Source: Terriglobia bacterium
GTDB taxonomy: Bacteria > Acidobacteriota > Terriglobia > 2-12-FULL-54-10
Assembly (NCBI GenBank): GCA_963666975.2
Contig: CAXVYR010000004.1
Coordinates: forward strand, 128,001 to 192,000
Direction of reading: 5' to 3'
Length of the DNA stretch: 64,000 bases
Shown here in pieces: positions 28,529 to 48,096 of this stretch. Both the position numbers and the translations under genes were made by a program. The number at the start of each line of letters is the position of its first letter. The first letter of the stretch is position 1. Under the pieces are notes generated by a model that saw nothing but the letters and a program-made list of their open reading frames with translations, was not told the origin of the DNA and did not search any database.

Positions 28529-28770
28529 GAGATGTGCTGGCAGAAAAATTTATTTTGCGAAACAAAGCCACTAACCATTTTGGAATCATCAGGAGGTGTT
28601 TCGGAGACAGCTATACAAACCCACCGCATCACAGTAGCTGGTGGTTTCGGATGCTGATCGGCAGACACGCGCCGCTTCAGCTTTTCAAACCAGCCAAGTG
28701 GGTACAGGCCTCCAGGCCTGTACTGCGACAGGCAAGCCTGCCCCGAGCGGAGTCGAGGGGAATGCTTGTC

Positions 28771-29781: not shown

Positions 29782-29908
29782 GGCGACCTCCTTAAAAATG
29801 CATTGTGCATTCCGGCGGATTTCATTGTCCGTCTCTTCATTGTCCGTATCTTCAATGTCCGGCTCTTCAGTGATTGCCGCCTGCTTACATATTCCCAAAG
29901 CTCCCGAA

Positions 29909-30961: not shown

Positions 30962-31378
30962 AAAACGGAACGGAAACGGCAGCTAACTGAGCCTTTTGCC
31001 GGTCATTTGCTTCAGCCCAGGACAAAACCCCTCAGGCGTTTTCATCAACAATCCCGGCATCACTAATCCCGGCATCACTGATGCAAACACATCAGGGAGC
31101 AAACACCCCGGGATAGAATTCCCCTCTTAATGTTTTGTTCCGTTTGAACCAGAAACAGATGGCGATGATTTGCGAAATCCCCGGTTTAAGTCGGAAGCGT
31201 CTTGAATTTAGGATGAGATTATACAATGGCTGCAAGCAGCTATCCAGTGGGTTTCTTCGGTGGGTTTCGCCGGACATCCTGCATTCGCCCTTCACAAAAG
31301 GTAAATCGTGCCGGTTTTTGGAGTGGATTATAAAAACGCTTGCAGGGTTCGCTTTCCGCAAGGGCAGACAAAGCAGCC

Positions 31379-31930
31379 TCATTCCGCTTGGTTTTGCTGA
31401 GCCTGTTTGACTCGGATTGCCTTTGCGCGGGCTTCCCAATCTGCCGCCTCGTCCTCGCGTCCCATCTCGCGAAGCAACGCGGCGTAGTTCTCGATGCTGT
31501 GGCTACGCTGGGATGTTCCGCCCCGAAGGCCTTCTCGGCGATCTCCAATGACCGCCGGTAGAGCGGCTCGGCTTCGGCATAATTTCCCTGGGCGTAGTAG
31601 AGCGAAGCCAGGTTGTCGAGGCTCGCGGCAACGTCGGGATGCTCCGCCCCCAAGGTCTTTTCCATGATCGCCAAGGAGCGCTGATAAAGTAGCTCCGCCT
31701 CGGCGTAATTGCCCTGGGCATCGTAAAGAAACGCCAAGTCGTTGAGGCTTGCGGCGACGCCGGGATGCTCCGGCCCCAGAGTCTGTTCCTGGATTGCAAG
31801 CAACCGCGGTAGAACGGCTCGGCCTCGCTGTATTCACCCTGGGCATAGTAGAGGTCCGCCAAGTTCTTGAGTGTTGCGGTCAGGCGCGGGTCTTGCGTGT
31901 CAAAGCTTTCCGCTTCCTGCAGGGCAGTCA
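31379..31930 (-). pseudogene. TPR protein, 3' part (split by the integrative element; two 1-nt frameshifts)
   Basis: LTALQEAESFDTQDPRL..NLA.LY..QG.Y.EAE repeats with GxEHPxVA linkers spread over three frames. Confidence 0.85.
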
Positions 31931-32133
31931 ACCAAGTACAACTTATATGTTGTTCATAATATTAGACATACTTGATATTAACCCAACATGATCCCCTCAT
32001 TGTATCCCTCTTTCCGAACTGGAATCCATTGGACCGTCAGGGACATTCGTGGACAGGTTAGCCGAGAGATTCACCCTGAGTCCGGAAGCCCGAGGCAGTC
32101 GAGTGGGGTAGGCAACCTGCGCGTGGTGCGAAT
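31927..32133. repeat. Element end (attR arm region), copy 1 of an inverted repeat
   Basis: Near-identical reverse complement at 40692-40897 (both translate MIPSLYPSFRTGIHWTVRDIRGQVSR); AT-rich with ATCCC boxes. Confidence 0.9.
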
Positions 32134-32184
32134 GGAAGATCACGGATTGTGCTGCGCCGAGGTTGCGCCGCTCTTGTGTCCGCT

Positions 32185-32367
32185 CGACACGCTCATCGAG
32201 ATCATCTCAATCGCGCAGCAGGCGAGGCCGAACGTCATCGGCCAGATCGAGGACTTGCGCGCCCAGTTGATCGCCTGATTAAGCTTCGCGAAGATGATCC
32301 CTTCACCCTGTGTGCCGGTTTCCGCAGCAGGAATCAGCGAACTTTGTCCCGTCGTCGGGTATGCCAT
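32185..32367 (-). pseudogene. nuoB: 5' fragment of NADH-quinone oxidoreductase subunit B
   Basis: [24 protein letters not shown] is the NuoB signature; similarity stops abruptly after MISMSVS. Confidence 0.88.
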
Positions 32368-32446
32368 CCTGAATCTATTTTTCCACCGGCCTGAGTGCTT
32401 TGCAAACGGCGAACAGCTGGCCACTCTTCGAATGATTCGTGAAGAG

Positions 32447-34036
32447 CTAACCTTTGATTACGTTCTCTCCCTGACCTTCGCGAACAACCCTCGAAGCGTG
32501 GCTTGCGAGGAAACCGTCACGGGATGCACGGGTGAGCACTGAATTCCTGCGCCCCTTTTCCATCCGGTAGATTGAACAAAGAGTTTCTGCACGCTCAATA
32601 TCAGATCCAGCGGAAGAATAATGCCTTGCGATATGATCAATGTCCGCACGCGATCCAAAACGCGCAAGTACACGCTGAGCGGCGGATCGGAGGTATGCGG
32701 GTGAGTGTTCGGATCGATATTTCCGTCGAGCGTAGGCCAATGTTTGATCGGACGGCACTCGCTCACCGGCACTCCAGAACCTCAGTACCACGTAATGCTG
32801 GTATTCATAAACCGCATCTGGAGTTTTGAGAAATTGCAATATTCGGAATTCAGTCTTCGCCAACCACTGAACTTTCCCCATGTATGCTAGGATGGATTTT
32901 GTTTCCTCCGGGTGCTCCTCGAAAAGAGAAGTTGCATGACGCAAGGCAACGCGGTCTTTTGCCTTTCCTAGCCTAGCCAGCAAATAATGGAACAATGTCT
33001 TGTCAAATATCTTCGTGGACTTGATGAAGTGTAGGCGATAGGCTTGTCGAAGAAGTTTAGTGGGAGGTGAAATGTGGTTCTCTGCTAGCAGTTCCTCCGC
33101 TTGTGTGGACGAAAGATAATCGGAGTCTACTCCTACGAGTTCAGCGATTGTATCCTTATACTTTTTAACAAGGGGCTTCAACGTTGGCATAATCCCGTCG
33201 ACTTTTGCGCGGGCAGACTTTACTGACAGAATCTCTGTTTTAGCTGTTTGAAGACTTAGACCGCGATTGCGGAGCAGTTGACTGATGTCCACGAGTGCAC
33301 GCTTTGCTTCCGAAATGCTTCCGCAAAATATCCTGATATCGTCCACATATCTGAGGTGCTTGTAACCTGCCTCGTTAAGAGATTGGTCAACTCGGTCGAG
33401 ATAAAATTTAGCAAGAATATCTGAAGCGCTGATTCCTTGGGGAATCCCGCGACCGGGCACCATCGCCCATCTGTTTAGACAATGGCTCAAGAGTTCTATC
33501 AACGGATTTGAAAGGCCGGCATCTCGGAGATCAGAAATCAGGAGATCAAGGGCAATATGATCATAAAAGCCTGCTAGGTCCGTGCTAATCATGAAATCAA
33601 TTTCCGTTTCCAGTGCCGCGAGGCTTTGGTCGCGAAAATCCTTCCAACAAGCATACGGAAGTTTCAGCCAGTTGACTTGAGTACTGCCCGTAAATTGATA
33701 AGCACAATCGATCGGCGTTTTGGACCACGACATGGATGTGCACACATTTCTATAGGCCTTACCGACGATTGCAGTGAATACAACCTGATCCTGCAAACTC
33801 AGGATTGCCCCCGGTCGAATTCCTCCTTTACCCTTGGGAACGTCACAGATAGTTGCTGTTGAAGGGCTGTAATCGTTACCTGATATCCTTTTCAATAACT
33901 CATCTACCCAAGCATCTTCGCAGGATTGAATTATGGCAAGCTCAACAGGACTGGTTACAAAAACTCTGTCGTTCTTATGGTCTTGGACTACTCTCCTCAA
34001 GGCAAGTGACAAGTCTCGTTTTGACAGCAGCGCCAT
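32447..34036 (-). CDS. Reverse transcriptase, UG/Abi class-1-like, with alpha-helical repeat C-terminus (putative defence RT)
   Basis: [55 protein letters not shown]; ~250 aa helical tail; visibly lower GC than the host. Confidence 0.9.
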
Positions 34037-34046
34037 AGTGCCATGA

Positions 34047-34076
34047 TTATAGCGAAATTTAGATGGCCTAGTCGAT
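34047..34076 (-). promoter_or_regulatory. Putative sigma70 promoter of the RT
   Basis: On the - strand TCGACT-N18-TATAAT, 10 nt before the ATG; no SD, so a near-leaderless transcript. Confidence 0.5.
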
Positions 34077-34311
34077 GATGTGGAGAGCATCTGTGATCCA
34101 GCTTAGGACCGGCTTCCGCGCGGCTTTCATCGTGCAAGAAAGCCAAGTGCAGGTCCCGCGTCGGCGATGCCTCCTCGGGATGACAGCCAAGAAGCGGGCG
34201 GCGATAGTCACGCCGTAGTCGGACAGGATTACTTGCCACAACGGCGCGAGATACTTGAGCCGGGAGCCGAGGAACTGAAGTGCCAATCCCGCCTCGGCGC
34301 CGTCGGGCGAA

Positions 34312-34581
34312 AGGGGGCAGCAATTTGAGGGCGGTCAGATTGCGGCCCCAAGACTCCAACCGGACCCGCCAGACCGTGATGAGAAACAGCCCGCCGACAA
34401 TGACTGCGGCGGCGGGCGCGGCGTAGTACCAGCGAACGATCCAGCCGTAGAAGTTGGAGGTGTGATAGAGCACCAGATCCAGCACCGGATCGTCTCCGGG
34501 CATGGGGAAAGGCCGGTAGAGGAAACTCCAAGCGGAGCAGCCAAGCCCGCCAAAGAACAGGATCGGATAGCGCCATTTCAT
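34312..34581 (-). pseudogene. 5' fragment of a membrane-anchored protein, probably a type IV coupling protein (copy 1)
   Basis: MKWRYPILFFGGLG..YRPFP..DDPVLDLVLYH..WYYAAP; paralog at 42190. The coupling-protein assignment is from recollection of the family. Confidence 0.55.
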
Positions 34582-34599
34582 CGGGCTGGCCTCCGGCGC

Positions 34600-34951
34600 G
34601 TCAGCGCCAGCTTGCGGGTCCCTGTTCGGAGCCTTCCCGCAGGGATAAATCAGACGAGAGCGACCCCCAAAAAAGGGGGGGTCGCTCTCGTCTTTCCCCG
34701 CCCCTCTCCTTCTGGCGCGGGATCGCCGGGTGGCGCGGGATCGCCGGGTAGTGGCGGGCAAACACAAGAGAGGCAAAGAAATGGAAAAAATGAGTGCTGC
34801 CACAAAAAAATGCCGATTCTTGCCCCAACCCCCCCCTTATATAAGTGGCAAAAAAGATCGGCACGGCCACCGTGCACGGCAGGCCCAAAAAACAGTCTAT
34901 CTCGGAAACGTCCACTGGAGTTCCATTGCTGCGGTTCATTAGACTGTCTCC
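34600..34951. repeat. Iteron-rich non-coding region (oriT/ori-like), copy 1
   Basis: Reverse-complement homolog at 41771-42190; GTGGCA/TGCCAC boxes around CTTATATAAG. Confidence 0.65.
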
Positions 34952-35535
34952 ACCACCTTCACGCGGCTCGAAACCCACGTCTCGAAGCCGTCAATTGTGG
35001 CTCCGACTGAGCCGCTTGCCTTGGGAAGGTTCTTCAAATAACTCAACCGCTCTGAGACTCCCTGCAACCCGCCGTACTTCGCTATGATGTCCGTGTCTAA
35101 GGACAAAACCGCTTCCTCGATGGAATGTATTTTCTCCTTCACGGCAGGGTCGTTCCGGCTCGGTCCATCTGCCCTTTGACTGCTCTGCTCGCCAGCTCGC
35201 TGGCTCCAGGTTTCCAGCGCCGCCTCGGCCCGGATTGTGGCTTTGTGGTCTGCGCCGATTGCGACGGCGCGGACCTCGATACCCTTCAACCGTAAAGCCC
35301 TCCAAAGCCACTCATGAGAATTGCCCCAGGAACGCAGTTCGGTGTCGGTATATTTGCCCGGATCGACGTAGGCGAAGGTGGCGGTTTTGGCGTTAGCCGC
35401 GATGGGCAGTTTCAGGGCAAAGTAACGGGTTTGATTCCCCACGGCTCCCTGATAGATGCGGTGGGGAATCCGTTGGCGGTCGATGCCAAGCAAATCGAAG
35501 AAAGCGACCTTTTCCTGCTCGGTGGGAAGCCAGGC
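34939..35535 (-). pseudogene. 3' part of an element backbone protein
   Basis: WLPTEQEKV..RIYQG..RYFALKLPI..FAYVDPG..ELRSWG; upstream sequence in this frame looks non-homologous. Confidence 0.55.
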
Positions 35536-36079
35536 GTCTTCCACGGTTTTCTCCCAACTCTTTCCTTTCGTTGCTATTACACGGTTTTGGGGCGTCTGCT
35601 TTCGCTCGCAACGCCTACGCCTAGCCCGCTTGATGGGCGAGTTTTCTGACGGTCTCTTGACGGTAGTTGCTGCCATCGCCATGCTCTACTGGCCGCGCAG
35701 CTTGTTGTCGAGCGCGATCCAGTCGTTGCGATACCGGCGCTTGATGGCCTCCACCTGCTCCCACAGCTCGCACCCCGTTCCTCCTTCTATCAACTCCGTC
35801 TCGGTTGAAATCCCGAGTTGGACGAGCAGACCCTGAAGTGCCGCATCTAGCTGGCAGGCCGCTCTGTCTTCACCGGGAGCCACTTCCCAGCCCAGTCCTG
35901 GAACTGCTCCTGATGCTCGACCAAGTTCTTGCCGGCAATGAAGATCAGCTTGCACCGTTCACCTTGGCGACACCACATCACCCTCTTCGATCAGGTGGAG
36001 GTACCTATATGGCCTATTGACAACGGCGGGCTTTGCTCACCTATAGGCGTCCTGATGCGCGGGCTGCTGGAATGGAAGA

Positions 36080-36740
36080 TTAACAGCCCCTTCGCCGGCG
36101 CTTCGCCTTCAAACAAGACGGACGGGGCGGCGCAGACTTAACGCCTCCTGCGTCTTCGCGCTTTCGTTCGTAGCGTTCCCTCCGCACTGAGGAGGGGACA
36201 TCGTCTCTTGGATCGGGCAGTGCATCGACATAGTTCTGGGCGATGGCACTATCTCCTTCGGACCGTCGAAATTGGTCATAGACTCGCACCATTTCATGCG
36301 CAAATTTATCGCTGAGGGGCTCTTTGGATGATCTGTATTTGCTTCCGAATTGGCCGACCCATGTGTGGCGGTTCCCAACTCGAAGTAGACGTTTCAGGAG
36401 TGGAAATTTTGTGCCTCCTTTGTTGTCAATTAGCAGGGGAGCGTGCTCGTATCGAAAGGGCATCTACCTTGGTGACCAGATGGCTGCAGAACGGTCTCGG
36501 TAGGGTAACTACCTTCCTGACGGGCGGGCTAAGGAATACAAGGCGGGTGCCAAGTTTTCCGCCTTGCGCGAATGCCAGCCGTATCCCTTTCAGGTCACAA
36601 GCCGTCTTGGGGTGGAGCAGATTGCGGGCATGGCATCCCGTGATGCCGAAGCTGCCGAATTCCCAAAAGGGATCGTCCCGCATGTCCGAACGCCTCCTTG
36701 GTCTGCGAAGATGCACAATGATGACTTTTTCACCGGGCAT
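36080..36740 (-). pseudogene. Nmad3-associated protein, frameshifted
   Basis: VIIVHLRRP..MRDDPFWEFGSFGITGCH, continuing after a frameshift near 36490 as MPFRYEHAPLLIDN. Confidence 0.55.
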
Positions 36741-37220
36741 CAAGTTGTTCCTCTGAACCAACTCAACCTTTTGCCGTAAAAACCAGCTGTAGAATTTTCT
36801 GGCATTCAGAAATGCGGGCGGTCTGGCGCTGCGCTGAATGTAGCCATCTTTCACCGATAGGCCACCCCACTTTTCGAGCAGGCCGGGAGTCACGCGGTAG
36901 GCTCGGTCGCGCCATTCGCCAATTGGGATGCACTTGGTCAAGCGTCCGGATATAGACACCTTCGCGCGGACAACAATGTCAGCAGCAGCAATCTTACGCA
37001 CGCGCGTATGGGCGTTGCTCTTGTACTCAGTAGGAAGAACCGACGTGGCAGGCAGCACCTTATCAACCACGTACAGTCCAACCAACCCGTAGATCAGTTT
37101 CTCTTTCGCTCGAACCGACTTAAGGCCAGCATAGAAAACCAGAAGGTCATCTTCAGATAGATGCTTGATTCCAGCCCCGCGCTTGTCACCGTTGTCGCCA
37201 TAGGTCAGCCACTCAAAGTC
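36741..37220 (-). pseudogene. Nucleotide-modification-associated domain 3 (Nmad3)-like protein, 5'-truncated
   Basis: DFEWLTYGD..DDLLVFYAGL..NAH..SGRL..IPIG..YRV. Confidence 0.65.
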
Positions 37221-37323
37221 ATTGCCTCTCGCATTGCTGATCGTGGTAGACTGTGCCGGGGTTTTTGTCCTCTAAACCTGCCATCGACCCCACGCGCCTT
37301 CAGCTCGTGGAATAGGAAGGAAG

Positions 37324-38328
37324 ATGAAACGAATGATGAAATATCGTCTCTCCCCATTTCTGGTTCTCTTAATCCTGCTGTGCGTCGCGCCGCAAGCTTT
37401 CGGCGCCGATGAACCCGTGTCTTGCTCAGATCACTCCATCAACGCCCACGCTTTGCTCACAACGGGGGACGTTCAGGTGTTCGTTCAATGCGCCCACGAG
37501 TTCGTCCAGCAAGTGGGCTTTGAGGAGGCCCGTCGGGCCTTCCACGAAGACGAGCGTTGGAGAAGCGGTCCAACCTATGTCTTCGTCGACGAAGTGACGG
37601 CAATGAGATTGGATGCCCGAGCTTTCATCTTCCCGCCCGATCCGTCGCTGGAAGGGCAACCCTGGGGCCCGTTGATCGACGCCTACGGCGACTACTACGA
37701 GGAACTGTATCGTGTCATGAGCGTCGTCGATGAAGGCTGGCTCTACTACGCCTTCAGAAACCCGGCTACCGGCAGGGATGAGCCGAAGGCTTCCTACGTC
37801 AAAAAAATCGACTGGGACGGGGTGCCTTCTGCAATCGGCGCGGGCATCTACCGCCGCGACCTTCCCGGCACCTGCGAGGCGGAAGAGGTCAACGCCATGC
37901 AACTCGAGGCAGCGCCTTCCGCCCAGAGGCTGCAGGAGTTTGTCCGTTGCGCCGCCATGGAGCTGGAATCGAGTGGGTACTTCGCCGTCGGGGCGCTATC
38001 CAGCTATCCCCGCTGGCGAAACCAGTCGATCTACGTGTTCGGCCTGGATACCTACGGCAACCCGCTGTTCAGCGGCGATCTCTATAGCCAGCCGTGGTGG
38101 GGCGCCCTTGCCCCCGAGTTGAACGACCATGTGGGCGGACCCTTTGGGGGCCGGGATGTGGTGAGCGTCGGCAACGCCTTCGGCGAAGCCTTCCTGTACT
38201 ACTCGACGCGCAATCCCTTCACCGGGATGCTGCAACGCAAGGTGACTTTCGTCAAGAGGATACTGGTCTATGGCCTGCCGATTCTGGTCGGCGCCGGCTA
38301 TTATCTGGACGGCGAGGAGGGTCCGTAG
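37324..38328 (+). CDS. Secreted double-Cache domain protein, copy 1
   Basis: Signal peptide; two Cache-like units (YVFV..GWLYY..NPATG..EPKASYVK..IGAGIY). Confidence 0.8.
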   Translation: MKRMMKYRLSPFLVLLILLCVAPQAFGADEPVSCSDHSINAHALLTTGDVQVFVQCAHEFVQQVGFEEARRAFHEDERWRSGPTYVFVDEVTAMRLDARAFIFPPDPSLEGQPWGPLIDAYGDYYEELYRVMSVVDEGWLYYAFRNPATGRDEPKASYVKKIDWDGVPSAIGAGIYRRDLPGTCEAEEVNAMQLEAAPSAQRLQEFVRCAAMELESSGYFAVGALSSYPRWRNQSIYVFGLDTYGNPLFSGDLYSQPWWGALAPELNDHVGGPFGGRDVVSVGNAFGEAFLYYSTRNPFTGMLQRKVTFVKRILVYGLPILVGAGYYLDGEEGP

Positions 38329-38524
38329 GTCGGGCCAGGGTGCCTTTCTTGCCTTACCCCTTGACGGCGTGCGGGACTTGAGGAAGGTTATTTTGTGACA
38401 CTCAAAGCCCCGTCGCGGTCCTCGCCGGGCCTGAACTACGGGACGGCCCAGGGAGTGCTGGGGCTCCCGCCCTCAAAACTGCCATCGCTCCCACGCGCCT
38501 TCAACACGTGGAATAGCTAAGGAG

Positions 38525-39529
38525 ATGAAACTGATGAAACTTAGCCTCCCTCCATCTTTGGTTCTCTTAGTCCTACTGTGCGCCGCCCCGCAGGCTTTTG
38601 GTACCACCGAACCCGTGCCGTGCGCGAATAAATCCATCGTTGCCAGCGCCGTGCGCACACTGGGGGACATTCAGGCGTTCGTTCAATGCGCCTATGAGTA
38701 TGTCCAGGAAGTGGGTTTTGAGGAGGCCCGCCGGGCCTTCCACGAGGACGAGCGTTGGAGAAGCGGTCCCATCTATGTCGTCGTCAGCGAAGTGGCACAA
38801 ATGCCCGAGACGGCTCGTGCTTTCGTCTTTCCGCCCGCCCCTTCGCAGGAAGGGCAACCGTGGGGGCCGCTGGTCGATGTCTTCGGCAACGACTACGTCG
38901 TGGAACTACACCGTATCCTGAACAGCTTCAGCACGGGTTGGCTCTACTACTCCGTCACAAACCCAACGACGGGCAGAGATGAGCCGAAGGTTTCCTACCT
39001 CAAGAGCATCCACTGGGACGGGAATCCGGCCTCGATCAGCGCGGGGATTTACCGGCGCGACCTGCCCGGCACCTGCGCGGCGGAAGAGGTCAACGCCGGC
39101 CTGCTCGAATCCGATCCTTCCAACGCGCGGCTGCAGGAGTTCGTCCGTTGCGCCGCCATGGAGCTGGAATCGAATGGGTACTTCGCCATCCGGGCGCTCT
39201 CCAGCGATCCCCGCTGGCGAAACCAATCGATCTACGTGTTCGGCCTGGATACCAACGGCAACTCGCTGTTCAGCGGCAATTTCTACAGCCAGTCGTGGTG
39301 GGGCAGCCTTTCTCCGGAGTTGAACGACCATATAGACGGACCCTTTGGGGGCCGGGACGTGGTGAGCGTTGGCGATGCCTTCGGGGAAACCTTTCTGTAC
39401 TACTCCACGCGCAATCCCTCCACCGGGAGGATGCAGGACAAGGTGGCTTTCGTCAAGAGAGTCGTGATCTCCGGCCTGCCGATCCTGGTCGGCTCCGGCT
39501 ATTACCTGGACGGCGAGGAGGGTCCGTAG
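38525..39529 (+). CDS. Secreted double-Cache domain protein, copy 2
   Basis: Paralog of copy 1; AAGGAG SD. Confidence 0.8.
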   Translation: MKLMKLSLPPSLVLLVLLCAAPQAFGTTEPVPCANKSIVASAVRTLGDIQAFVQCAYEYVQEVGFEEARRAFHEDERWRSGPIYVVVSEVAQMPETARAFVFPPAPSQEGQPWGPLVDVFGNDYVVELHRILNSFSTGWLYYSVTNPTTGRDEPKVSYLKSIHWDGNPASISAGIYRRDLPGTCAAEEVNAGLLESDPSNARLQEFVRCAAMELESNGYFAIRALSSDPRWRNQSIYVFGLDTNGNSLFSGNFYSQSWWGSLSPELNDHIDGPFGGRDVVSVGDAFGETFLYYSTRNPSTGRMQDKVAFVKRVVISGLPILVGSGYYLDGEEGP

Positions 39530-39632
39530 GCCGGGCCTGAACTACGCTACGACCAAAAGGTGGTGCAGGGGTTCCCGCCCTACAAAACCGCCATCGCTCC
39601 CACGCGCCTTCAACTCGTGGAATAGCAAGGAG

Positions 39633-40622
39633 ATGAAACTGGTGAAACTTAGCCTCCCCCCATCTCTGATTCTCTTAATCCTACTATGCGCAGCGCCGCA
39701 GACTTTTGGCGCCGATGAACCCGTGCCTTGCTCGGATCACTCCATCGTTGCCAGCGCCGTGCGCACAACAGGGGACGTTCAGGCGTTCGTTCAATGCGCT
39801 TATGAGTTCGTCCAGGAAGTGGGCTTTGAGGAAGCCCGCAGGGCTTTTAACGAGGACGAGCGTTGGAAAAGCGGCCCCATCTATGTCTTCGTCTCCGAAG
39901 TGACGCCGATGAGCGATCAGGCCCGACTCTTCGTCTTCCCGCCCGCTCGGCCGAGGGAAGGATCAAGCTTAGGACTGTTGATCGACGCCTACGGCAACGA
40001 CTACTACAAGGAACAGCATCGTATCGTGAGCGGCTTCGGCGCGGGCTGGCTCTACTATTCCTTCTTAAACCCCGCGACCGGCCGGGATGAGCCAAAGGCT
40101 ACTTTCATCAAGGGCATCGACTGGGACGGGAATGCGGCCGCAATCGGCGCGGGCATCTACCGCCGCGACCTTCCCGGCACCTGCGAGGCGGAAGAGGTCA
40201 ACGCCATGCAACTCGAGGCAGCTCCTTCCGTCCAGAGGCTGCAGGAGTTTGTCCGTTGCGCCGCCATGGAGCTGGAATCGAATGGGTACTTCGCCATCCG
40301 GGCGTTATCCAGCGATCCCCGCTGGCGCAGCCAATCGATCTACGTGTTCGGCCTGGATACCTACGGCAACGCGCTGTTCAGCGGCAATCTCTACAGCCAG
40401 CCGTGGTGGGGCGCCCTTGCCCCCGAGTTGAACGACCATGTGGACGGACCCTTTGGGGGCCGGGATGTGGTGAGCGTCGGCAACGCCTTCGGTGAAACCT
40501 TCCTGCACTACTCGACGCGCAATCCCTCCACCGGAATGCTGCAGCGCAAGGTGGCTTTCGTCAAGAGGATAATAGTCTATGGCCTGCCGATTCTAGTCGC
40601 CGCCGGCTATTATCTGGATTGA
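39633..40622 (+). CDS. Secreted double-Cache domain protein, copy 3
   Basis: Paralog that is a mosaic of copies 1 and 2. Confidence 0.8.
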   Translation: MKLVKLSLPPSLILLILLCAAPQTFGADEPVPCSDHSIVASAVRTTGDVQAFVQCAYEFVQEVGFEEARRAFNEDERWKSGPIYVFVSEVTPMSDQARLFVFPPARPREGSSLGLLIDAYGNDYYKEQHRIVSGFGAGWLYYSFLNPATGRDEPKATFIKGIDWDGNAAAIGAGIYRRDLPGTCEAEEVNAMQLEAAPSVQRLQEFVRCAAMELESNGYFAIRALSSDPRWRSQSIYVFGLDTYGNALFSGNLYSQPWWGALAPELNDHVDGPFGGRDVVSVGNAFGETFLHYSTRNPSTGMLQRKVAFVKRIIVYGLPILVAAGYYLD

Positions 40623-40691
40623 AGCGAGCCGGTTCGCAAGCGGCCGACTATCGGGCCGCTGAAGCACAGCGGCACAGCCAGCGAATCTCCG

Positions 40692-40911
40692 ATTCGCAGC
40701 ACACGCAGATTGCCACCCTACTCAACCGCCTCGGACTCCCGGACTCCGGGTGAATCGCTCGGCTAACCTGTCCGCGAATGTCCCTGACGGTCCAATGGAT
40801 TCCCGTTCGGAAAGAGGGATACAATGAGGGGATCATGTTGGGTTCATATCAAGTATATCGATTATTATGAACAACTTATAAGTTTAACTTGGTTGACGCT
40901 ACCTCAGGCAT
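40692..40911. repeat. Second element end (attR-like), inverted relative to 31927-32133
   Basis: Ends TGGTTG-ACGCTACCT-CAGGCAT: the same core arm but a different 9-bp spacer. Confidence 0.85.
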
Positions 40912-40986
40912 CTTTTCCAAACCCCGTCAAATTTGGTAAGCTGGTGGGACTGCGGTGATGCAGCAGGAATGGTGAGGAGGAGTGCA

Positions 40987-41748
40987 ATGACGGCAGGGTT
41001 CAGGGGTATCGTCCGGCGGCTGTCTCCGCTGATTCTGTTGCTGGCCTGCGGTCTGCCGGCCCAGGCCCAGGACCGGGCCGCTCTCGAGCAGCGCCTCAGC
41101 GAGCGCGTGGAGCAGCTCTATCAATTGTTCGTTTCCGGCGACTGGAGCAAGGTGGACGCATACATCACGGATGATTCCCGGAACATCTGGCTGGCCCAGG
41201 CCAAAAACACCATCGAAGCGTTTGAGATTGACGCGGTGACGGTCGCGCCCGACGGCTAAAAGGCCGACGTCACCGTGATGATCTCCTACCGCATCCCGCA
41301 AGCTCTCGGCGCGCCCTTCACCCAGCCGCAGAAGACCGAGTGGCTCCATCAGGGAGGAGAGTGGTTTGTCCAGTTGAAGCCTCCGCCTTCCCCGATGGAC
41401 CTGTTCACAAAGGGTGCCACCGCCGTAAAGCCTGCCGCACCGAAGCCCGCCTTCCGGTTCGACCAAAACCCCGTGAGCATTGCCCGTCCGGCAGCGGGCT
41501 TCAAAGCCGTTGTAAAAGTCCCCTTTGAAAATGTGACGACCGAGGTGGTGACCCTCCAGGACGTCATCACCACCTGCCCTTGCCTGCAGGCCAAGGTGGA
41601 TCAAGCGGTGATCGACCCGGGCGGAAAAGGAGTCCTCACGATCACCTATCTTCCCTCCGAAGCGCCCTCTTTCCAGCAACCGCTCAGCGTCCGAGCCGTG
41701 CTCGCTCCGTCAAACTACGTTTTGGATCTGCCGGTGGTGATTAAGTAG
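40987..41748 (+). pseudogene. Secreted protein with C-terminal DUF1573/Ig-like domain and an in-frame TAA at 41257
   Basis: AGGAGG SD; signal peptide; PFEN..V.TTCPC..IDPGGKG.L.ITY; frame continuous across the TAA. Confidence 0.65.
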
Positions 41749-41770
41749 GTAGCGACAGGCCTTAGGTAGG

Positions 41771-42190
41771 GGAGACAGTCTAATGAACCGCAGCAATGGA
41801 ACTCCAGTGGACGTTTCCGAGATAGAGCGTTTTTTGGGCCTGCCACAAACGGTGGCCGTGCCGATCTTTTTTGCCACTTATATAAGGGGGGGTTGTGGCA
41901 AGAATCGGCATTTTTTTGTGGCAGCACTCATTTTGTCCATTTCTTTGCCTCGCAGTGGTTTTCCTGCTACTACCAGGCCATCCCGCGCCAGAAGGAGAGG
42001 CGCGGGGAAAGACGAGAGCGACCCCCCCTTTTTTGCCGCTCTATCGGCAAACAGGAAAAGGGGTTTGTGGCAGGGTTTGTGGCATACCCTGCCACCCCCT
42101 TTTGGGGGTCGCTCTCGTCTGATTTATCCCTGCGGGAAGGCTCCGAACCCTAACCCCAAAAGGGCGCTGAGGCGCCGGAGGCAAGCCCCA
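41771..42190. repeat. Iteron-rich non-coding region, copy 2
   Basis: Inverted homolog of 34600-34951 with an extra GGGTTTGTGGCA tandem. Confidence 0.65.
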
Positions 42191-42575
42191 TGAAAATACG
42201 CCATCCGATCCTGATAGTTGCTGGGCTTGGCTGCTCCGCTTGGGGTTTCCTCTACCGGCCTTTCCCCCTGCCCGGCCACGATCCAATGCTCGACCTGGTG
42301 CTCTATCACACCCCCAACTTCTACACCTGGATCGTCTGGTGGTACTACATCGCGCCAGCCGCCGCCGTCGTCGTCAGCGGACTGTTTCTCATCACGGTCT
42401 GGCGGGTCTGGTTTGAGTCTTGGGGCGTCGGCCTTCCGAACATCCAGATGCTTCCACCGTGGCCCGTGAATCCCGCAGAAGACGACGGGCCGTCGATCGT
42501 TGTTGGGGAGGTTCATCACCCGGTCAAAGCCGTCGAATCTCGTAACCCTTCCTGGCTCATTATCCCGGAGCGCGG
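42190..42575 (+). pseudogene. 5' fragment of the probable coupling protein (copy 2)
   Basis: MKIRHPILIV..LPPWP..SIVVGEVHHPV..PSWLIIPERG, truncated where a P-loop region would be expected. Confidence 0.6.
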
Positions 42576-42633
42576 CCGCGCGCGCGCGTGGCCCCTGGCG
42601 GGCCGTGTCGCGTGCGATAATCCCTATTGATAA

Positions 42634-43354
42634 GGGGCTGTCCTAGCTAAGGGTGATTCTGTCTCGATTTGATCCATGTCTTCAATTGGTTAAGCAGTGT
42701 CCGGTGGTTACCGCCATTGAAGCGCCATTCGCACTCCTTCAGGAAGAGGTGAAAACTCTGTTTGGGCACCCCGTTGAAGCGCCGAAGATGCCGCTTTGCC
42801 TGGTTCCAGAAGTTCTCGATCCCATTGATGTGGTTCCGTTCGTCGACGAACCGTTCCGAGTGGTTGATCCGAACATGGTGGAAGTCCGACACATCCAGAG
42901 CATCGTAGCTCGAAAAGCCATCCGTGTAGACGATGCTGTCGGGCTGGATCAGGCGCTCCATGATCGGCATCAACGTGTCCGTACGGGCATTGGGGATCAT
43001 CACCGTGTAGACCCTTCCTCCACGCTTCAAAAGCCCGAAAACCGGGACTTTCCCGCCAGCACCACGACCGCGTTTGCCCTTGCGGCGACCACCGAAGTAA
43101 CTCTCGTCCACTTCGATTTCGCCGCAAACCGAAGAGGCTTTCTGGGTCTCCTCGGCAATCACCGTGCGAATCCGTGTATAGAACGAAGCGGCCGTGTTCC
43201 GATGAACCCCGACAAGCTCAGCCGCCGCCCGTGCCGTCGTCCCGGCAACGAAGTGCTCCACCAACCGATCCCGCTTCGCCTTGCTCAGCCGACTACGCCG
43301 TTCGTACATATCGCCATCCTATCCCTAAGCAATCTGCTTAGCTAGGACAGCCCC
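42634..43354 (-). mobile_element. IS1595-family (IS1016-like) element, 721 bp; transposase 42647-43309
   Basis: Perfect 18-bp IR GGGGCTGTCCTAGCTAAG; 8-bp TSD ATTGATAA; EVDESYFGG, VYTDG, HINGIENFW. Confidence 0.95.
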
Positions 43355-43489
43355 ATTGATAATTACATGTATGGCGAAGGATTCTGAGGGCAGGGAGAAC
43401 ACGCCCCCATGACCAATGGACCAGCGATCGTCATCGGCGGCGAGTGTCCGACTTGGCCAGACGGCCCTCGAACCCTGAAGGCGCTGCCC

Positions 43490-43566
43490 GCCAGCCACTC
43501 CGCCTCGCAGCGGGTCCACCCGTGCGTCATCAGGACAGCCGCTCGGTCCCGAAGATGGGCGATCAT
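43490..43566 (-). pseudogene. 5' stub of a backbone gene translationally coupled to the integrase
   Basis: TGATG overlap with the int stop; MIAHLRDRAAVLMTHGWTRCEAEWLA, then degenerates. Confidence 0.5.
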
Positions 43567-44789
43567 CAACCGGCGCTCTCGCGCTCGCTGTCGAGGTAGG
43601 CTGCCCAGTCATGCATCAAAATCCGCCGACGTTCAAAGAGGTCCGAGCGGGCGTAGGCCGCCTCGACCTTGTTCCGGACCACATGCGCCAGGGCCGCCTC
43701 GATCACCTCTCGTGGATGATTCGTCTCCTCGGCCGCCCAGTCGCGGAAACTGGAGCGGAAACCGTGCGGCACGGCGGAGATCTTTAAGTCCTTTAGCAAT
43801 CCCGACAGCATCATGTCGCTGAGTTGCTTTCCTTGCTGCACGCTCGGGAACAGCAGCGGGCCGCCGCCTTCGCCCAGCGTCCGGGCCGCGTCGAGAATCT
43901 CTATGGCACGGCGGCACAGCGGCGCCCGCTGCTCGCGATTCGCCTTCATCCGCGTGGCCGGAATCGTCCACACACCCTCGTCCCGATCGATCTCCGTCCA
44001 CACCGCCCCACGCACCTCACCGGACCGCGCCGCCGTCAGCACCAGGAACTCGAACGCCAGCTTCACGACCGGCCTCGCATTCGATGCCCGGATCGTCTCG
44101 ATGGCCGCCGGCACCTCCCGGTGGGGCAATGTCCGCATGTGCTGCACAACACCGTGTTGGGCACCGAGCACCGGCACCACCCGGTCACAGGGGTTGTCGA
44201 TACGAAATTCCATCGCCACGACCCATTCCAACACCGCGCGCATGCGCTGCTGGACGCAACGGGCCATGACCGCCTTCCGGTGCCAGATGGGCGTGAGGAT
44301 CTCCAGCACATCGGCACTGCTCACTTCTGAGACCGGCATCTTGCCGATCCGCGGAAAAGCGTAGCGTTCCAGGCTGCTCAGCCAGTCCCTCGGGTGAGTC
44401 GAACTACGCCAGCCGGCCTGCTTCTGTTGCAGCACGCGCGCAGCAGCTTCGGCGAAGCTGGGCACGCCCTGGGCGCGGCGTTTCTCTGCCAGCGGGTCAC
44501 CGCCCTCGCGGGCTAGCTTGCGATTGGTCAATGCCTTTTCGCGAGCCTCGGCGAGCGAGACCAGTGCGACACTGCCGAGTCCGAGCTCGCGGCGTCGGCC
44601 TCGGATGATGAGACGTTGAATCCAGCTCCGGGTTCCGCTAGGCTGGACGAAGAGGTACAGCCCGTTGCCGTCAGCGTGTCTTCCCACTCCGGCTGAGCGC
44701 ACGAAGGAGGCCGATAGGACCTTGTCGGGATGGCGGCCTTTGGGCTTGGTTTTTGGTGGTAGGCTGACTGTCTTGATTACAGCAATCAT
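43566..44789 (-). CDS. Tyrosine integrase, P4/IntA-like, with arm-binding domain
   Basis: ADGNGLYL..RELGLG..SLAEAR (DUF4102); catalytic LTAARSGE, RMK, HGFRSSF, LAH and AY. Confidence 0.95.
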   Translation of the reverse strand: MIAVIKTVSLPPKTKPKGRHPDKVLSASFVRSAGVGRHADGNGLYLFVQPSGTRSWIQRLIIRGRRRELGLGSVALVSLAEAREKALTNRKLAREGGDPLAEKRRAQGVPSFAEAAARVLQQKQAGWRSSTHPRDWLSSLERYAFPRIGKMPVSEVSSADVLEILTPIWHRKAVMARCVQQRMRAVLEWVVAMEFRIDNPCDRVVPVLGAQHGVVQHMRTLPHREVPAAIETIRASNARPVVKLAFEFLVLTAARSGEVRGAVWTEIDRDEGVWTIPATRMKANREQRAPLCRRAIEILDAARTLGEGGGPLLFPSVQQGKQLSDMMLSGLLKDLKISAVPHGFRSSFRDWAAEETNHPREVIEAALAHVVRNKVEAAYARSDLFERRRILMHDWAAYLDSERESAG

Positions 44790-44795
44790 CCCACC

Positions 44796-44824
44796 ATTAT
44801 AAATGGGATGACCGTGGATTTCAA
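44796..44824 (-). promoter_or_regulatory. sigma70 promoter of the integrase (leaderless)
   Basis: TTGAAA-N17-TATAAT-N6-ATG; the -10 is bracketed by the CATCCCA/TGGGATG inverted repeat. Confidence 0.7.
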
Positions 44825-44936
44825 GGGAAGTAGTGGGCAATAAAATGTGCGTCAGTATTCATATATCTAATTGAATATATAGATAGTTATAAACTCTCCT
44901 GGACGATTATGGATGTTGTTGGATTCTGATAGATGG

Positions 44937-45137
44937 CTGTAGGGCAGTCAGCCATTGCTCCTCGGCCTCGGCGTAGAGACCTTGCTCATAGGCCTCGGTT
45001 CCGGTGTCGTTATATCTCTCCCACATCGCGCCGCGGCATGCTTGCGTAGAGGCCAGCAGCATACACAGAACTCCTGCCTGCCACAGATGGGTTCGGGCGT
45101 TCATATCCTCTGCCTCCTTTGCCTCCTTTAGCTTCAT
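44937..45137 (-). pseudogene. TPR protein, 5' part with signal peptide
   Basis: MNARTHLWQAGVLCMLLA..WERYN..G..AYEQG.YAEAEEQWLTALQ ends at the att core. Confidence 0.85.
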
Positions 45138-45214
45138 CTGGTGGCTTCATCCATATTTAGGGATGCAAAAGCTTGGCGGGACTTAGGCGGGCAAACAGGT
45201 GTGCAGCGGCGGGA

Positions 45215-45571
45215 CTAAACCCACTCCAAAGCGCCCTTTTTGTAGACCCAGATGTAGCCGGCGATCAAGATGGCCAGGAAAATCCCCATCTCAAGCAGGC
45301 CAAACAGCCCCAGTACTTTGAACTGCACAGCCCAAGGAAACAGGAAGATGGTTTCCACTTGGAAAATGACAAAGAGGATGGCGACGATGTAGAAGCGAAC
45401 GGTGTATCGCCCTCGAGAGTCCGATGCCGGGTCGATGCCGCACTCATAGGGCATGAGCTTCGCTTTGAAGGGAGCGTCCGGCCGCACCAGCTTGGCTGCC
45501 AGCAGGGTGACTACTGGAAAGAGAGTGGCAATAATCAGAAAAATGACAACGGGGATGTATTCAGAAGGCAC
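45215..45571 (-). CDS. nuoA: NADH-quinone oxidoreductase subunit A
   Basis: KLMPYECG, RFYIVAILFVIF.VE..FLFPWA, KKGALEW; GTG start. Confidence 0.93.
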   Translation of the reverse strand: MPSEYIPVVIFLIIATLFPVVTLLAAKLVRPDAPFKAKLMPYECGIDPASDSRGRYTVRFYIVAILFVIFQVETIFLFPWAVQFKVLGLFGLLEMGIFLAILIAGYIWVYKKGALEWV

Positions 45572-45722
45572 AGTCTCGCTCCCTGACGTTCGGTAATCGT
45601 GAGCGCCATTGTAACACAACTTTTGCCGGCCCAACTCCCGGCAGTTTTTCAACACCTCTCTGACACTATTTTCAACTCAGCAGAACCACCATGTTTTTCC
45701 GCGCAAGCCCTTCTGTCAGTTC

Positions 45723-47555
45723 TCAGTGCCGGTGCGCCATCGGCGCCGACAAGACCACGAGGTTCAACACCGTGTAAGCGATGGCGAAAAGCATAATCGG
45801 CAAAGCCGTGCGAAAAGCCAGCCGGGACTGGGCGGTATTCCGCCGCGCCACAGTAACTCCCACCCGAAAAGCCAGGAAGAGGCCGCCGGCCAATGCCAGC
45901 CATTGCAGTGTAAACAGCGTGTTCGGCGCGATGGAGGATGCAGCCGCGGCCGTTGAGGCCGATGCCAAAGACTCCCAACCTGTGTATTGCGCCACCGCGT
46001 TCTTCACGCCGGTCCACATAGCGCCTCCCTCTCCGAACAGGTGGTGAAAATTATGCGCCGCGTGCAAACCCAGGCCCAGCGGAAGGAACGCGTAAGCGTA
46101 GGTGCGAAACGTCCGAAAGATGTCGCCGCGAAACTCCTCGCGGGGCGCTCCCAGATAGGAAACCAACCCCACCAGCAGAACGGGAACGATCAGTCCCAGC
46201 ATCACAAAGATCAGCGTGTAGAGAACCGGGCCCGGCGCCATGCCCAGCCATCTGCCGGCAGCCGCCTCCCATCCCGTCCATGCATTCAGCATCACCAAAG
46301 TCTGCAACAAAGCGACGCCCAGCACGGCCGCCACCGTCGAGGCCTCATCCAATGACTTGCGATGCGAATGGAACTCACCCAGGTCGGCGCCGAACGACTG
46401 AGTCTGAAGAGTGATATTGTCGTTGGGGCACGCCCGAACGCAATCCAGGCACATGTTGCACTCCGCGTTGCGGTCCATCGTGGGAGCGAACTCAAACCAG
46501 GCGCAAGATTGGTAGCAATCCTTGTGGGGGCATTCCTGCTGGCAGAGGTTCTTGTCCTTTACGCCGATCCGCACCGGAGCCGTCATGGCATACAGACCGA
46601 AGATGCCGCCCAGCGGACAGACATAGCGGCAGAAGGTCCGTTTCTGATAGATCACCGCCAGCGTGACCGCTCCCAGGGTCAGCCCCAACCCCAGTCATGC
46701 TGTTCCGAATGGCCAGCGGTCCAGAGCCCACAGGGTTGTGGCCCAAGTGAGCGCCAGGAACAGTCCCACGCGCCACCACATATTCTTCAGTATCTTGGGA
46801 GCTTTCAACTGGAAGCTGAAGATTTTTTGTGCCAGGTCGCCCACCCAGCCAAACGGACAGGCCATGCACCAGATGCGCCCCAGCAAGATAAAGGTAAAAA
46901 TGATCGCCGGCCACCACAGAATCCATGTCAGCAGGATCGCCGGGTTGCTGGTGTTCTGTTCCCCGAACAGACCGGCAAGCACAACAAACGTAAAAATTAA
47001 AGCCGTCGGGGCAACCAACAAGGCCGGGAAATGCTTCCACCGCACGAGCTTGCCGATTACAGGCCACTTTAACAGATCGCTTCCCTGCGCGTGTGGTTCC
47101 GCCGCTCCTGGACGGAGCGAGCGCCATGCTGAATACATCAGCGCGGCGGCTATCGCAAAGGTCAAAAGCAGCAGCAATCGCACGACTCCCGGAGTGGGAA
47201 TGATACCGCCATGTTCGTGGTCCATTTCTCCGGCGTCGGCAGTCATCCCGGCCGAGGTCTCCTCGCTCATATTCATATCGTGCATAGTCAGCCTCAGAGC
47301 AAATCGCGGGGCCAAAGAGTCCCGGGAAGGCGAGCGGAGATCGTGCTGAGGGGCGGCCTGTCCGTTTTGGACAACCATCATGCTGGCGGCAACAGCCGCC
47401 GCAGTATTTTTCTGGGCCGTGTCTTTCTGAGTCGCGTCATGCGCAGCCAGAAAATCGGTCCCGACAAGACAGATCACCAGAAGAACCCCAGCCAGCAACG
47501 CCCTGGCCGGCCGTAACTGAAACATTAACTGAGCACTTCTATTGAGCCGATACAT
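45723..47555 (-). pseudogene. Membrane polyferredoxin (NapH/FixG-like 4Fe-4S binding) with an in-frame TGA at 46695-46697
   Basis: GRIWCMACPFG, FCRYVCPLG, CNMCLDCVRACP; the two ORFs share a frame; His/Met-rich N-terminal region. Confidence 0.8.
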
Positions 47556-47631
47556 CGGGCCTCCTTCGTGAGCAGGGAGTCCGAACAGCCCTGCTTGAAA
47601 TAACAGGAGTTTTTATTTTGGGGAATCGGGA

Positions 47632-48096
47632 TCAGCCCCGATGTCTCGGAGGATGAAAGGGAGGAAGGAGAAAATTTTCCGCGGGCCGGATGTCTTCCGG
47701 CAGAGAAGTCACCGAAACCTGCGCCAGCGGCAGATGGACGACCGTGACAGAAATCCTCAGGAATTGTGACGAAGTTAAGGCCAAATCAGCGAAAAGATCT
47801 TTACAATGCTGAAAGTAATGCCCGCTGTCCTCGCTTTCCGGCACGGACTCCGATTCCTGGTGATGTTGTTGCTGGTGCTGGCGCGAGTGAGCGGAAGTTG
47901 CGCCGCGGGAATGCGCGGAGGTTGCCTCGTGCGAGTGATTGGGAACCAAACACTCCAGCGGATTAAGTTCGTCAGTCAGATAGAAACGGCTTATTTGAAA
48001 GCTGAACAAAACCATCACTACTAGAGCAATGGTCCGTTGGAACACAGGGCTGGCCGAATCACCCCTGAGAAGGTTAATCTGGAGCAACGGCAGCAT
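47632..48096 (-). CDS. His-rich hypothetical protein ending PFHPPR
   Basis: N-terminal hydrophobic segment, His tracts and a C-terminal HPP motif, typical of small proteins preceding metal-handling genes. Confidence 0.55.
   Translation of the reverse strand: MLPLLQINLLRGDSASPVFQRTIALVVMVLFSFQISRFYLTDELNPLECLVPNHSHEATSAHSRGATSAHSRQHQQQHHQESESVPESEDSGHYFQHCKDLFADLALTSSQFLRISVTVVHLPLAQVSVTSLPEDIRPAENFLLPPFHPPRHRG

Follow-up and report, generated by a model that had tools for sequence, protein, structure and literature searches.

This locus raises the question of whether the junction near position 40.9 kb is an attachment (att) end of an integrative element and, if so, whether its distinct spacer tells of relaxed, transposon-like target choice, as a preliminary description of this DNA had proposed. 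The window is the whole stretch of 64,000 nucleotides that was analysed (Terriglobia bacterium, contig CAXVYR010000004.1, positions 128,001 to 192,000). It holds an outer 13-kb element, E1 (31913-44955), and within it what may be a nested second copy, E2 (about 34345-40896); X and X' denote their respective integrase-distal arms. Comparisons were made with the window's own genome (G000; 4.23 Mb), a same-genus genome (G011, also G001) and a further related genome (G005). We consider it likely that the 40.9-kb junction is the att end of an integrase-less E2, moved by a P4-type integrase with a homology-dependent 7-bp overlap and a dispersed repeat as target.

The junction at 40.9 kb

Positions 40685-40911 form a true attL-type junction, in which an integrase-distal arm is followed by the core half-site TTGGTTGA, the overlap CGCTACC and the target half-site TCAGGCAT. 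In inverted orientation, the window segment 40685-40897 repeats the left-end arm of E1 (31927-32140) with 89.7% identity over 214 nt; a second alignment of the two arms (inverted-repeat pair I2) gave 91% over 183 nt. The arm similarity of ~205 bp reported earlier was real, but it links the left arm of E1 to the inverted internal copy and not two right ends: the right end of E1 at 44.9 kb bears a different, integrase-proximal arm. Homology between X and X' stops exactly at TTGGTTGA, with CGCTACC and then TCAGGCAT coming after it, and the + strand at 40889-40911 reads TTGGTTG-ACGCTACCT-CAGGCAT. The endpoint of the X' arm is the same base as in nine other arm copies. The X' arm was 95% identical to an arm in the same-genus genome (G011:C4:351982-352117) and 88% identical to that of L020, an intact 8.8-kb sibling whose integrase is 91% identical to that of E1. 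The alignment of window 40763-40910 with the L020 arm end (88.5% identity) passed through the core, and the homology extended 14 nt beyond the arm.

All three junctions quoted in the preliminary description were present as written, at 44933-44955, 31913-31935 (- strand) and 40889-40911 (+ strand), and its identification of the last as a genuine second att-type end was supported. The likeness is not due to chance, the arm family having seven copies in the window's genome. By our own estimate, a half-site match of 6/7 at one fixed position has a chance probability of about 1.3e-3. The palindromic pattern ATGSCTG-N9-CAGSCAT occurred three times in the 4.23-Mb genome, two of the three adjoining an integrase-proximal arm. 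The att-end identity of the junction is independent of any model for the nesting of E2. A sigma-70 scan of the X' arm revealed no promoter; an outward 'circular-form' promoter in the arm is a guess.

The outer element E1

On the - strand, 31913-31935 reads TTGGTTG-ACTGCCCTG-CAGGAAG and 44933-44955 reads ATGGCTG-ACTGCCCTA-CAGCCAT; the two form a direct repeat, with CTGCCCT lying within an 18-bp near-repeat. Across these junctions the reading frame of the interrupted TPR gene runs ...WLTALQ/EAESFDTQDPRL (...YEQGLYAEAEEQWLTALQ / EAESFDTQDPRL...), and the frameshifts in its downstream half were acquired since the insertion of E1. The empty TPR site was unreadable, for although the nuoA flank was matched in G010, G011 and G005, the alignments started only at query base 238-264; a tblastn search with both TPR parts against loci L054-L056 gave no match.

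The integrase of E1 matched the Pfam families Arm-DNA-bind_3 (PF13356, E 9.7e-18), Phage_int_M (PF22022, E 5.5e-22) and Phage_integrase (PF00589, E 1.1e-12), with no Tn916-type N-terminal family among its Pfam matches. E1 has the features of an element moved by a heterobivalent integrase, namely a three-domain integrase, a short direct repeat bounding the element, arms inside the repeat and inverted half-sites around an overlap of 6-8 bp. The promoter found by a promoter scan in the integrase-proximal (P) arm matched at 11 of 12 positions, and this arm was 97.4% identical to that of L019. With up to three mismatches allowed, the arm-type motif ACAATGAGGGGATCAT was found only in the two X arms (two matches against 0.4 expected; 6 of 100 shuffles reached two), and a look-alike in the P arm, TATAATGGTGGGATGAT, was noticed by eye alone.

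Overlap sequences across the family

The register of the core was given by L020, whose arm end reads TTGGTTGA-CGCTACC-TGAGGCAG and whose integrase end reads ATGCCTGT-CGCTACC-ACAGCCTA. Since the bases flanking CGCTACC differ between these two ends, the exchanged segment is 7 bp and the register 8-7-8. The spacer is distinct, as had been described, but it is better read as this 7-bp overlap than as 9 bp. The overlaps were tabulated on both sides (Table 1). The arm-side count comprised 10 of the 18 arm matches in G000, G011 and G005, those ending in an (A/T/G/C)xGGTTG- or CAACTTG-type half-site; the other eight, comprising two E3-type ends, two TGCAACAYCAAC-type ends, three of other subtypes (C2:439140, L032 and L039) and L046, with its arm broken off, were set aside. 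The integrase-side count comprised seven junctions of the subfamily, those of the more distant integrases E3, E5, L009-L014, L016-L018, L021-L023, L052 and L053, though read, not being counted.

Table 1. Seven-base overlaps at family junctions, by side
Overlap	Arm side	Arm-side junctions	Integrase side	Integrase-side junctions
CGCTACC	5/10	window X', L028, L029/L020, L030, L048	3/7	C3, L008, L020
CGCTACT	1/10	L015		
CGCTACG	1/10	L038		
CCTACCT	1/10	L035	1/7	L019
CTGCCCT	1/10	E1	1/7	E1
GAAGAGC	1/10	C3:86905		
CTCTACC			1/7	L051
CGATACAT			1/7	L015

The claim of a variable overlap was borne out, as CGCTACC, CTCTACC, CCTACCT, CTGCCCT, CGCTACT, CGCTACG and GAAGAGC are all in use, and the variants CCTACCT, CTCTACC and CTGCCCT show some retargeting. 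In two of the three complete subfamily pairs both ends were alike (CTGCCCT/CTGCCCT in E1, CGCTACC/CGCTACC in L020). The first overlap base was C at 9 of 10 arm-side and all seven integrase-side junctions (16/17). The element half-sites were (A/T)TGGTTG and (A/T)(T/A)GGCTGT, and the integrase-side outer half-site was A(T/G)GCCTGT. The arm-side outer half-site was weakly conserved over the 10 junctions, and the far-side CAG of the recognition sequence put forward earlier, TGGYTG-AC-N7-CAG, was not conserved there.

Because CGCTACC is the commonest overlap of the family, the internal junction is canonical, and the outer TPR junctions, with CTGCCCT at both ends, are the unusual ones. The integrase-side counterpart of the internal junction, with the same 7-bp overlap, is found at C3:28272-28294, where the - strand reads ATGCCTGT-CGCTACC-ACAGCCAT and then continues into 130 bp of integrase-proximal arm (C3:28150-28279) 96.9% identical to that of E1, before being cut off by other insertion sequence (IS) elements. 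As the target is repeated, the C3 and window junctions need not stem from one insertion event. The last 685 bases of contig C2 (441559-442243) match C3:28370-29053 in inverted orientation at 99.3% identity, and the match stops 76 nt before the integrase-side junction; the break in contig C2 is probably due to that repeat, so the true neighbourhood of the C3 junction is uncertain.

A dispersed REP-like repeat as target

CGCTACC is the tail of a hairpin repeat resembling repetitive extragenic palindromes (REP), GACAGGCC-GGA-GGCCTGTC-GCTACCTG. The full hairpin (GACAGGCA-loop-TGCCTGTC) lay directly outside four of the seven integrase-side junctions, two others lay in REP arrays without a full hairpin, and no REP was present at E1; the insertion point thus keeps a fixed relation to a dispersed extragenic palindrome. 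The sequence RGCCTGYCKCTACC occurred 30 times in G005, 7 times in G011 and once in G000 (2, 1 and 3 times, respectively, for a reversed-pattern control). The consensus of 30 distinct contexts, drawn from G005, G011 and the single match in G000, was ggG.acaGgCcGGAGGCCTGTCGCTACCTG, often in arrays with other hairpins. The 3' arm of the hairpin, together with whatever trails the 7-bp tail, supplies the inverted half-sites needed by a tyrosine recombinase. The TPR site of E1, ATGGCTGA-CTGCCCT-GCAGGAAG, resembles the repeat site in its half-sites, and by analogy with the secondary sites and site-affinity variants of lambda this insertion would be at a secondary, retargeted site.

With a dispersed repeat as target, one specificity gives many insertion places with different flanks. 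The integrase family does insert at many places outside tRNA genes (the TPR gene, REP-like repeats and ardC), and no tRNA gene was seen at these targets when the flanks were read directly, without a tRNA scan. Several overlaps, and no single fixed attB, are in use in the genome and its relatives, CGCTACC being the commonest. The many sites of the presumed promiscuous element are therefore real, but they come mainly from a repeated target and not from relaxed recognition. In the same way, the 'different spacer' at 40.9 kb does not speak for relaxed targeting: it is the commonest overlap and the tail of a REP-like repeat, with empty copies near the same gene in G011. As this end uses the family's usual target, it gives no evidence for transposon-like random insertion. 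No description of a REP-targeting tyrosine integrase was found in the limited collection of literature searched, and the one candidate paper in it deals with guide RNAs and not with integration.

An arm-free locus in the same-genus genome

The DUF1573 cassette that follows the E2 core in the window was also found in G011 (C7, L087 10131-11026), where window 40901-41781 was matched at 93.75% identity and the REP tail beyond the stop codon forms part of the match. No arm is adjacent to it there, and its homology to the window begins at 40901-40904. An empty ATGCCTGT-CGCTACC-TATCGGGG site, with ATGCCTGTCGCTACC unoccupied, lies 363 nt upstream of CAGGCAT, and two further such sites lie within the 20 kb read. 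Between the empty canonical site and CAGGCAT there is a small gene (hicB-like, by eye) that is missing from the window. Nothing of this G011 region is present at the syntenic position in G000, so the cassette is island cargo in both genomes. Judged by its bases, the window junction is the product expected from integration into such a REP-type site.

Mechanism and alternative explanations

The domain architecture of the integrase and the anatomy of junctions in three genomes suggest how the family may move. A P4-type heterobivalent integrase would bind sites in the two arms and, at the core, imperfect inverted half-sites reading (A/T)TGG(T/C)TG in the element and A(T/G)GCCTG in the target, and strand exchange would take place across a 7-bp overlap required to match between the two. 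The preferred target would be the 3' arm and tail of the REP-like hairpin (…CAGGC-loop-GCCTGT/CGCTACC/TG…). A core of degenerate half-sites in a 7-7-7 arrangement is the classical layout (10.1101/2023.11.06.565760).

A number of observations weigh against this mechanism or against the history proposed for E2. The overlap is not fixed, being CTGCCCT in E1, CCTACCT in L019/L035, CTCTACC in L051 and GAAGAGC at C3:86905, and the canonical repeat is nearly absent from the window's own genome (one match against three for the control). The ends of L015 are discordant (CGCTACT and CGATACAT), as heterology-tolerant exchange would give, though its integrase gene contains a stop. The G011 bases directly left of CAGGCAT (...AACTGCCCCACCC) are not REP plus CGCTACC. 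Either the small gene was never in the G000 lineage or ~0.36 kb was deleted later, ending 8 nt outside the arm; with a later deletion, the good TCAGGCAT half-site would be fortuitous. The arm-type integrase sites are candidates by motif resemblance only. Nesting of E2 in E1 would require a minimum of one deletion (34344/34345) and, at 41770/41771, a fusion for which there is no explanation, and the backbone operon of the sibling L020 is oppositely oriented, so that another split of the genes between E1 and E2 is possible. Neither an excision product nor a circular junction was seen in the contigs, which were the only material.

An integrase with loose half-sites and a heterology-tolerant overlap, like IntDOT or Tn916 Int, would insert at unrelated sites and carry coupling-type sequences along. 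It would account for several overlaps (CGCTACC, CTCTACC, CCTACCT and CTGCCCT) among integrases more than 90% identical, for E1 within a protein-coding TPR gene without REP, for the ends of L015 and for the arm-free G011 locus, which reads CCCCACC where the window has CGCTACC. The C at overlap position 1 also recalls the need of IntDOT for identity only next to the cleavage site (PMC2817482). We nevertheless regard this explanation as unlikely. Coupling sequences of the Tn916 type, invoked in the preliminary description, predict discordant ends, whereas those of E1 and L020 are alike and the sole discordant element, L015, has a broken integrase gene; like overlaps in two of three complete elements therefore fit classical homology-dependent exchange. 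A matching overlap is the rule for the tyrosine integrase family apart from IntDOT (PMC2817482). Most overlaps are natural variants of the REP tail, so there may have been a match between element and target; in G011, 363 nt upstream of this same gene, a canonical site stands empty; and the N-terminal domain of the integrase is of the P4-type Arm-DNA-bind_3 family. The four overlaps among siblings 91-94% identical may reflect stepwise re-aiming through look-alike sites or some IntDOT-like tolerance. A P4-type integrase aimed by the hairpin arms and needing identity only at the cleavage-proximal overlap base(s) could re-aim itself: it would enter a look-alike site with a foreign overlap and exit carrying that overlap, CGCTACC becoming CTCTACC or CCTACCT and then CTGCCCT inside the TPR gene. 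This proposal seems to us improbable; if true, it would describe a natural self-reprogramming site-specific integrase found across several soil phyla, whose activity would incidentally give rise to nested copies.

The region is much rearranged, in that its Y module is duplicated in inverted orientation, an IS has inserted, open reading frames (ORFs) are truncated and the TPR gene is frameshifted; the integrase-side partner end of E2 is missing, and the G011 bases left of CAGGCAT form a non-canonical site. These features would suit a junction that was no integrase product but the chance endpoint of a deletion or rearrangement, falling where a duplicated arm ends. We hold such an origin to be very unlikely, as the arm stops at the base shared with the nine other copies, the commonest overlap of the family comes next and the homology to the L020 junction runs on for 14 nt. 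The two inverted arms of ~210 bp that share 90% identity and bracket cargo genes (31928-32140 and 40685-40896) also resemble the terminal inverted repeats of a 9-kb transposon-like unit; however, no transposase was found between them, the flanking 7-mers (CTGCCCT and CGCTACC) differ and so form no target-site duplication, and the complete relatives E3, L020, L015 and L017 carry this arm once, at the end opposite the integrase. A transposon-like unit is hence extremely improbable, and the integrase-made att end with a matched overlap remains our preferred explanation.

Contents of the element and the putative nested copy

The features of the locus are collected in Table 2. The reverse transcriptase gene sits just inside the left arm, with a downstream 94-aa ORF (32140-32424) that has no family. 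It was the sole PADLOC match among 10 proteins, and PHROGs assigned no family to 14 backbone or cargo ORFs. A group II intron or retron, suggested by the reverse transcriptase and the X/Y repeats, was rejected: the enzyme is a defence-associated reverse transcriptase of class UG21, and Y is a gene start with its upstream region.

Table 2. Features of the locus (window coordinates)
Feature	Position	Strand	Details
Split TPR gene, 3' part	~31100-31920	-	carries frameshifts
attL-type junction of E1	31913..31935	-	TTGGTTGA element half-site, CTGCCCT overlap, GCAGGAAG TPR gene side
X arm of E1, integrase-distal (P'-type)	31928..32140	+	contains motif ACAATGAGGGGATCAT
Cargo: defence-associated reverse transcriptase, class UG21	32447..34090	-	Pfam RVT_1 E 8.6e-20; PADLOC RT_UG21 E 5.7e-142, full profile length
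Putative E2 remnant, inverted	34345..40896	-	membrane ORF, 247-aa gene, unknown ORFs, Cache genes, X' arm; without integrase and integrase-proximal arm
X' arm, integrase-distal arm of E2	40685..40896	+	terminates in element half-site TTGGTTGA at 40889-40896
E2 junction core	40897..40911	+	7-bp overlap CGCTACC 40897-40903 and outer half-site TCAGGCAT 40904-40911
DUF1573 cassette	40904..41770	+	gene 40933-41748 (Pfam DUF1573); REP-like tail GGTAGCGACAGGCCTTAGGTAGG at 41748-41770
Y' backbone module of E1	41771..42630	+	upstream region and 146-aa membrane-protein ORF 42190-42630
IS1595-family IS, 723 bp, inserted into E1	42632..43354	-	Pfam DDE_Tnp_IS1595 E 1.2e-33
P4-type heterobivalent tyrosine integrase of E1, 424 aa	43566..44840	-	likely true start ATG near 44789
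Integrase-proximal (P) arm of E1, ~140 bp	44790..44932	-	holds integrase promoter TTGAAA-17-TATAAT, 44824 to 44796
attR-type junction of E1	44933..44955	-	ATGGCTGA TPR gene side, CTGCCCT overlap, ACAGCCAT element half-site
Split TPR gene, 5' part	44956..45137	-	TPR_10 and TPR_12 matches

The case for E2 as an integrase-less second copy nested inverted in E1 is about evenly balanced. Its truncated membrane-protein ORF has an ATG near 34580, with homology stopping at 34345, and its 247-aa gene lies at 34939-35682; inverted repeats I1 and I3-I6 pair 34345-34958 with 41764-42426. No integrase gene was found between 34345 and 40896. The order of E2 (membrane ORF, 247-aa gene, cargo, arm) is that of the complete sibling E3 read outward from its integrase. 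E2 would have inserted, inverted, into a REP-type site of the E1 cargo next to the DUF1573 gene, and its integrase side would later have been deleted, the deletion ending at 34344/34345. At the 41770/41771 fusion, the REP tail AGGTAGG runs into the region upstream of the membrane ORF, at a point where the other copy has AGGTGGT; the fusion could be an integrase-mediated event at a pseudo-site or the result of microhomology. Its position (41748-41775 compared with 34958-34975) coincides exactly with AGGTAGG, which is the alternative overlap CCTACCT read on the opposite strand. Of the histories considered for the 13 kb none came out clean, as inversion between the Y copies, inversion between the two CGCTACC cores and tandem insertion each leave an unexplained joint. 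Four public runs, examined over 31500-45500, gave short contigs of which none spans either junction pair, and no excision or inversion joint was seen at the att sites, which is uninformative either way.

The E2 cargo includes three tandem Cache-domain paralogues (37324-40622, + strand; 334, 334 and 329 aa) with 78-87% DNA identity. They have no recognised output domain, and a conserved 69-nt block precedes each of them (37253-40622). The DUF1573 gene contains a single in-frame stop, at residue 109, and REP-like repeats flank its cassette. The Y' module was 83% identical to E3 and 75% identical to C2:394287-394852, part of a 563-aa ORF. Within C2:388000-400000, homologues of the membrane ORF and the 247-aa gene lie among genes for TrbI, VirB6/TrbL, VirB8 and a VirB11-type ATPase; both are conjugation-operon remnants, the 146-aa ORF representing the N-terminus of one such gene. 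A strong GC hairpin (GACGAGAGCGACCCCC...GGGGGTCGCTCTCGTC) lies upstream of the membrane ORF in both copies (34648-34696 and 42012-42125), with an extra insert of ~60 nt in the loop of the second. The sole Rfam match there was a sub-threshold chance one: over 28000-48000 at E<=1, the search returned a single weak match, Plastid-psbJ-5, at 27.4 bits against a cut-off of 53.1. The IS1595-family IS has nine other full-length copies at >=99% identity in the genome, as well as several partial ones, and was recently active in this lineage.

Related elements

The integrase was present in three copies in the window's genome, and the integrase scan yielded 20 loci, the closest of them (91-94% identity) in G011. 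The complete sibling E3 (G000 C4:2398772-2409210; L001 4750-15215) splits ardC at a 9-bp repeat, CAGCGCCAT, and encodes a TnsA-like endonuclease along with a ResIII helicase and an N6/N4 methylase. The split ardC is an anti-restriction gene of a conjugative element, and a direct duplication of ~125 bp lies just inside the arm of E3 (L001 ~14575-14830). The same ardC site is also occupied in G005 (L044), and a second subfamily has the common core TGCAACAYCAAC. Each of these other subfamilies keeps to a single core in its different copies (CAGCGCCAT at the ardC site of two genomes; TGCAACAYCAAC), so the family behaves as site-specific.

In G011 (C7:573218-590157), the integrase genes of L019 and L008, 94% and 92% identical to that of the window, face each other 14 kb apart. 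Their junctions are CCTACCT and CGCTACC, respectively, and no distal arm lies between them, a mirror image of the arm-to-arm layout in the window; self-BLAST of this region showed only an inverted repeat of 1.45 kb comprising integrase and arm. At C2:441570 and L053 (G011:C7:1270600-1271200), a distal arm belonging to the second subfamily runs directly into TGCAACATCAAC and then into a homologue of the integrase-proximal arm of a 78% identical integrase. This looks like the remnant of a joined (attP-like or tandem) junction without an integrase gene. Integrases 58-76% identical (L010-L014, L016-L018, L021 and L022) were found in Longimicrobiales, Candidatus Versatilivorator, Aminicenantes and Bryobacterales metagenome-assembled genomes, often in several copies per genome; an 11-bp repeat, CACCAGCAACT, borders L017. 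In metagenomes, neither a 28-nt word of the P arm, searched exactly, nor a degenerate X-arm pattern of 30 nt gave any match.

Comparison with known systems

If the favoured mechanism is correct, the family consists of integrase-borne elements with defence cargo, for instance a UG21 reverse transcriptase or a restriction-like module, that use a dispersed palindromic repeat and not a single gene as attachment site. Such a site would account for the several and nested copies per genome, for the frequency of orphan ends and for the rearrangements of these Terriglobia-like genomes. The natural sibling integrases, 91-94% identical with four overlaps, form a useful set for studying how a tyrosine integrase is re-aimed. 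On present evidence, no new recombination mechanism is added.

In layout the family resembles P4-type islands and integrative and conjugative elements (phage P4, ICEclc IntB13, SXT Int), which share a three-domain integrase whose gene lies at one end with a promoter of its own, arms of ~140-210 bp, terminal short direct repeats, defence or other cargo and backbone genes from a conjugation operon. Those elements usually, though not obligatorily, insert at the 3' end of a tRNA gene. The insertions examined here are not in tRNA genes; the usual target is a REP-like dispersed repeat, several or nested copies occur per genome, and close relatives bear different overlaps. Lambda Int, with its secondary sites and saf variants, likewise combines a homology-dependent 7-bp overlap with occasional use of look-alike sites, and here too the overlap carried can differ between close siblings; for lambda integrase, stepwise re-aiming through such sites is known, and SGI1 reportedly has a secondary attachment site. 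Unlike that of lambda, the primary site here is itself multi-copy. Insertion sequences that target REP (IS1397, ISKpn1 and IS110-family members such as IS621) share the dispersed extragenic palindrome and the many sites per genome, but they encode DDE or DEDD transposases and span ~1-1.5 kb, whereas the present elements have a tyrosine integrase with arms and 8-13 kb of cargo. The element ends have no recombinase other than that integrase; the IS1595-family IS (42632-43354) is a distinct insertion, present in multiple copies.

IntDOT of CTnDOT and Tn916 Int (PMC2817482) share with this family many targets, half-site-like flanks around a variable 7-bp segment and a conserved first overlap base. 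The present family differs from them in the like overlaps of two of three complete elements, the P4-type N-terminus and overlaps that are mostly natural repeat variants. The core of phage mv4 spans 21 bp: a 7-bp exchange region lies between two inverted binding regions, each 7 bp long and degenerate, in which nucleotide variation is tolerated (10.1101/2023.11.06.565760). The mv4 integrase differs from that of E1 in belonging to a Tn916-like subfamily and in having a tRNA gene as its target (10.1101/2023.11.06.565760).

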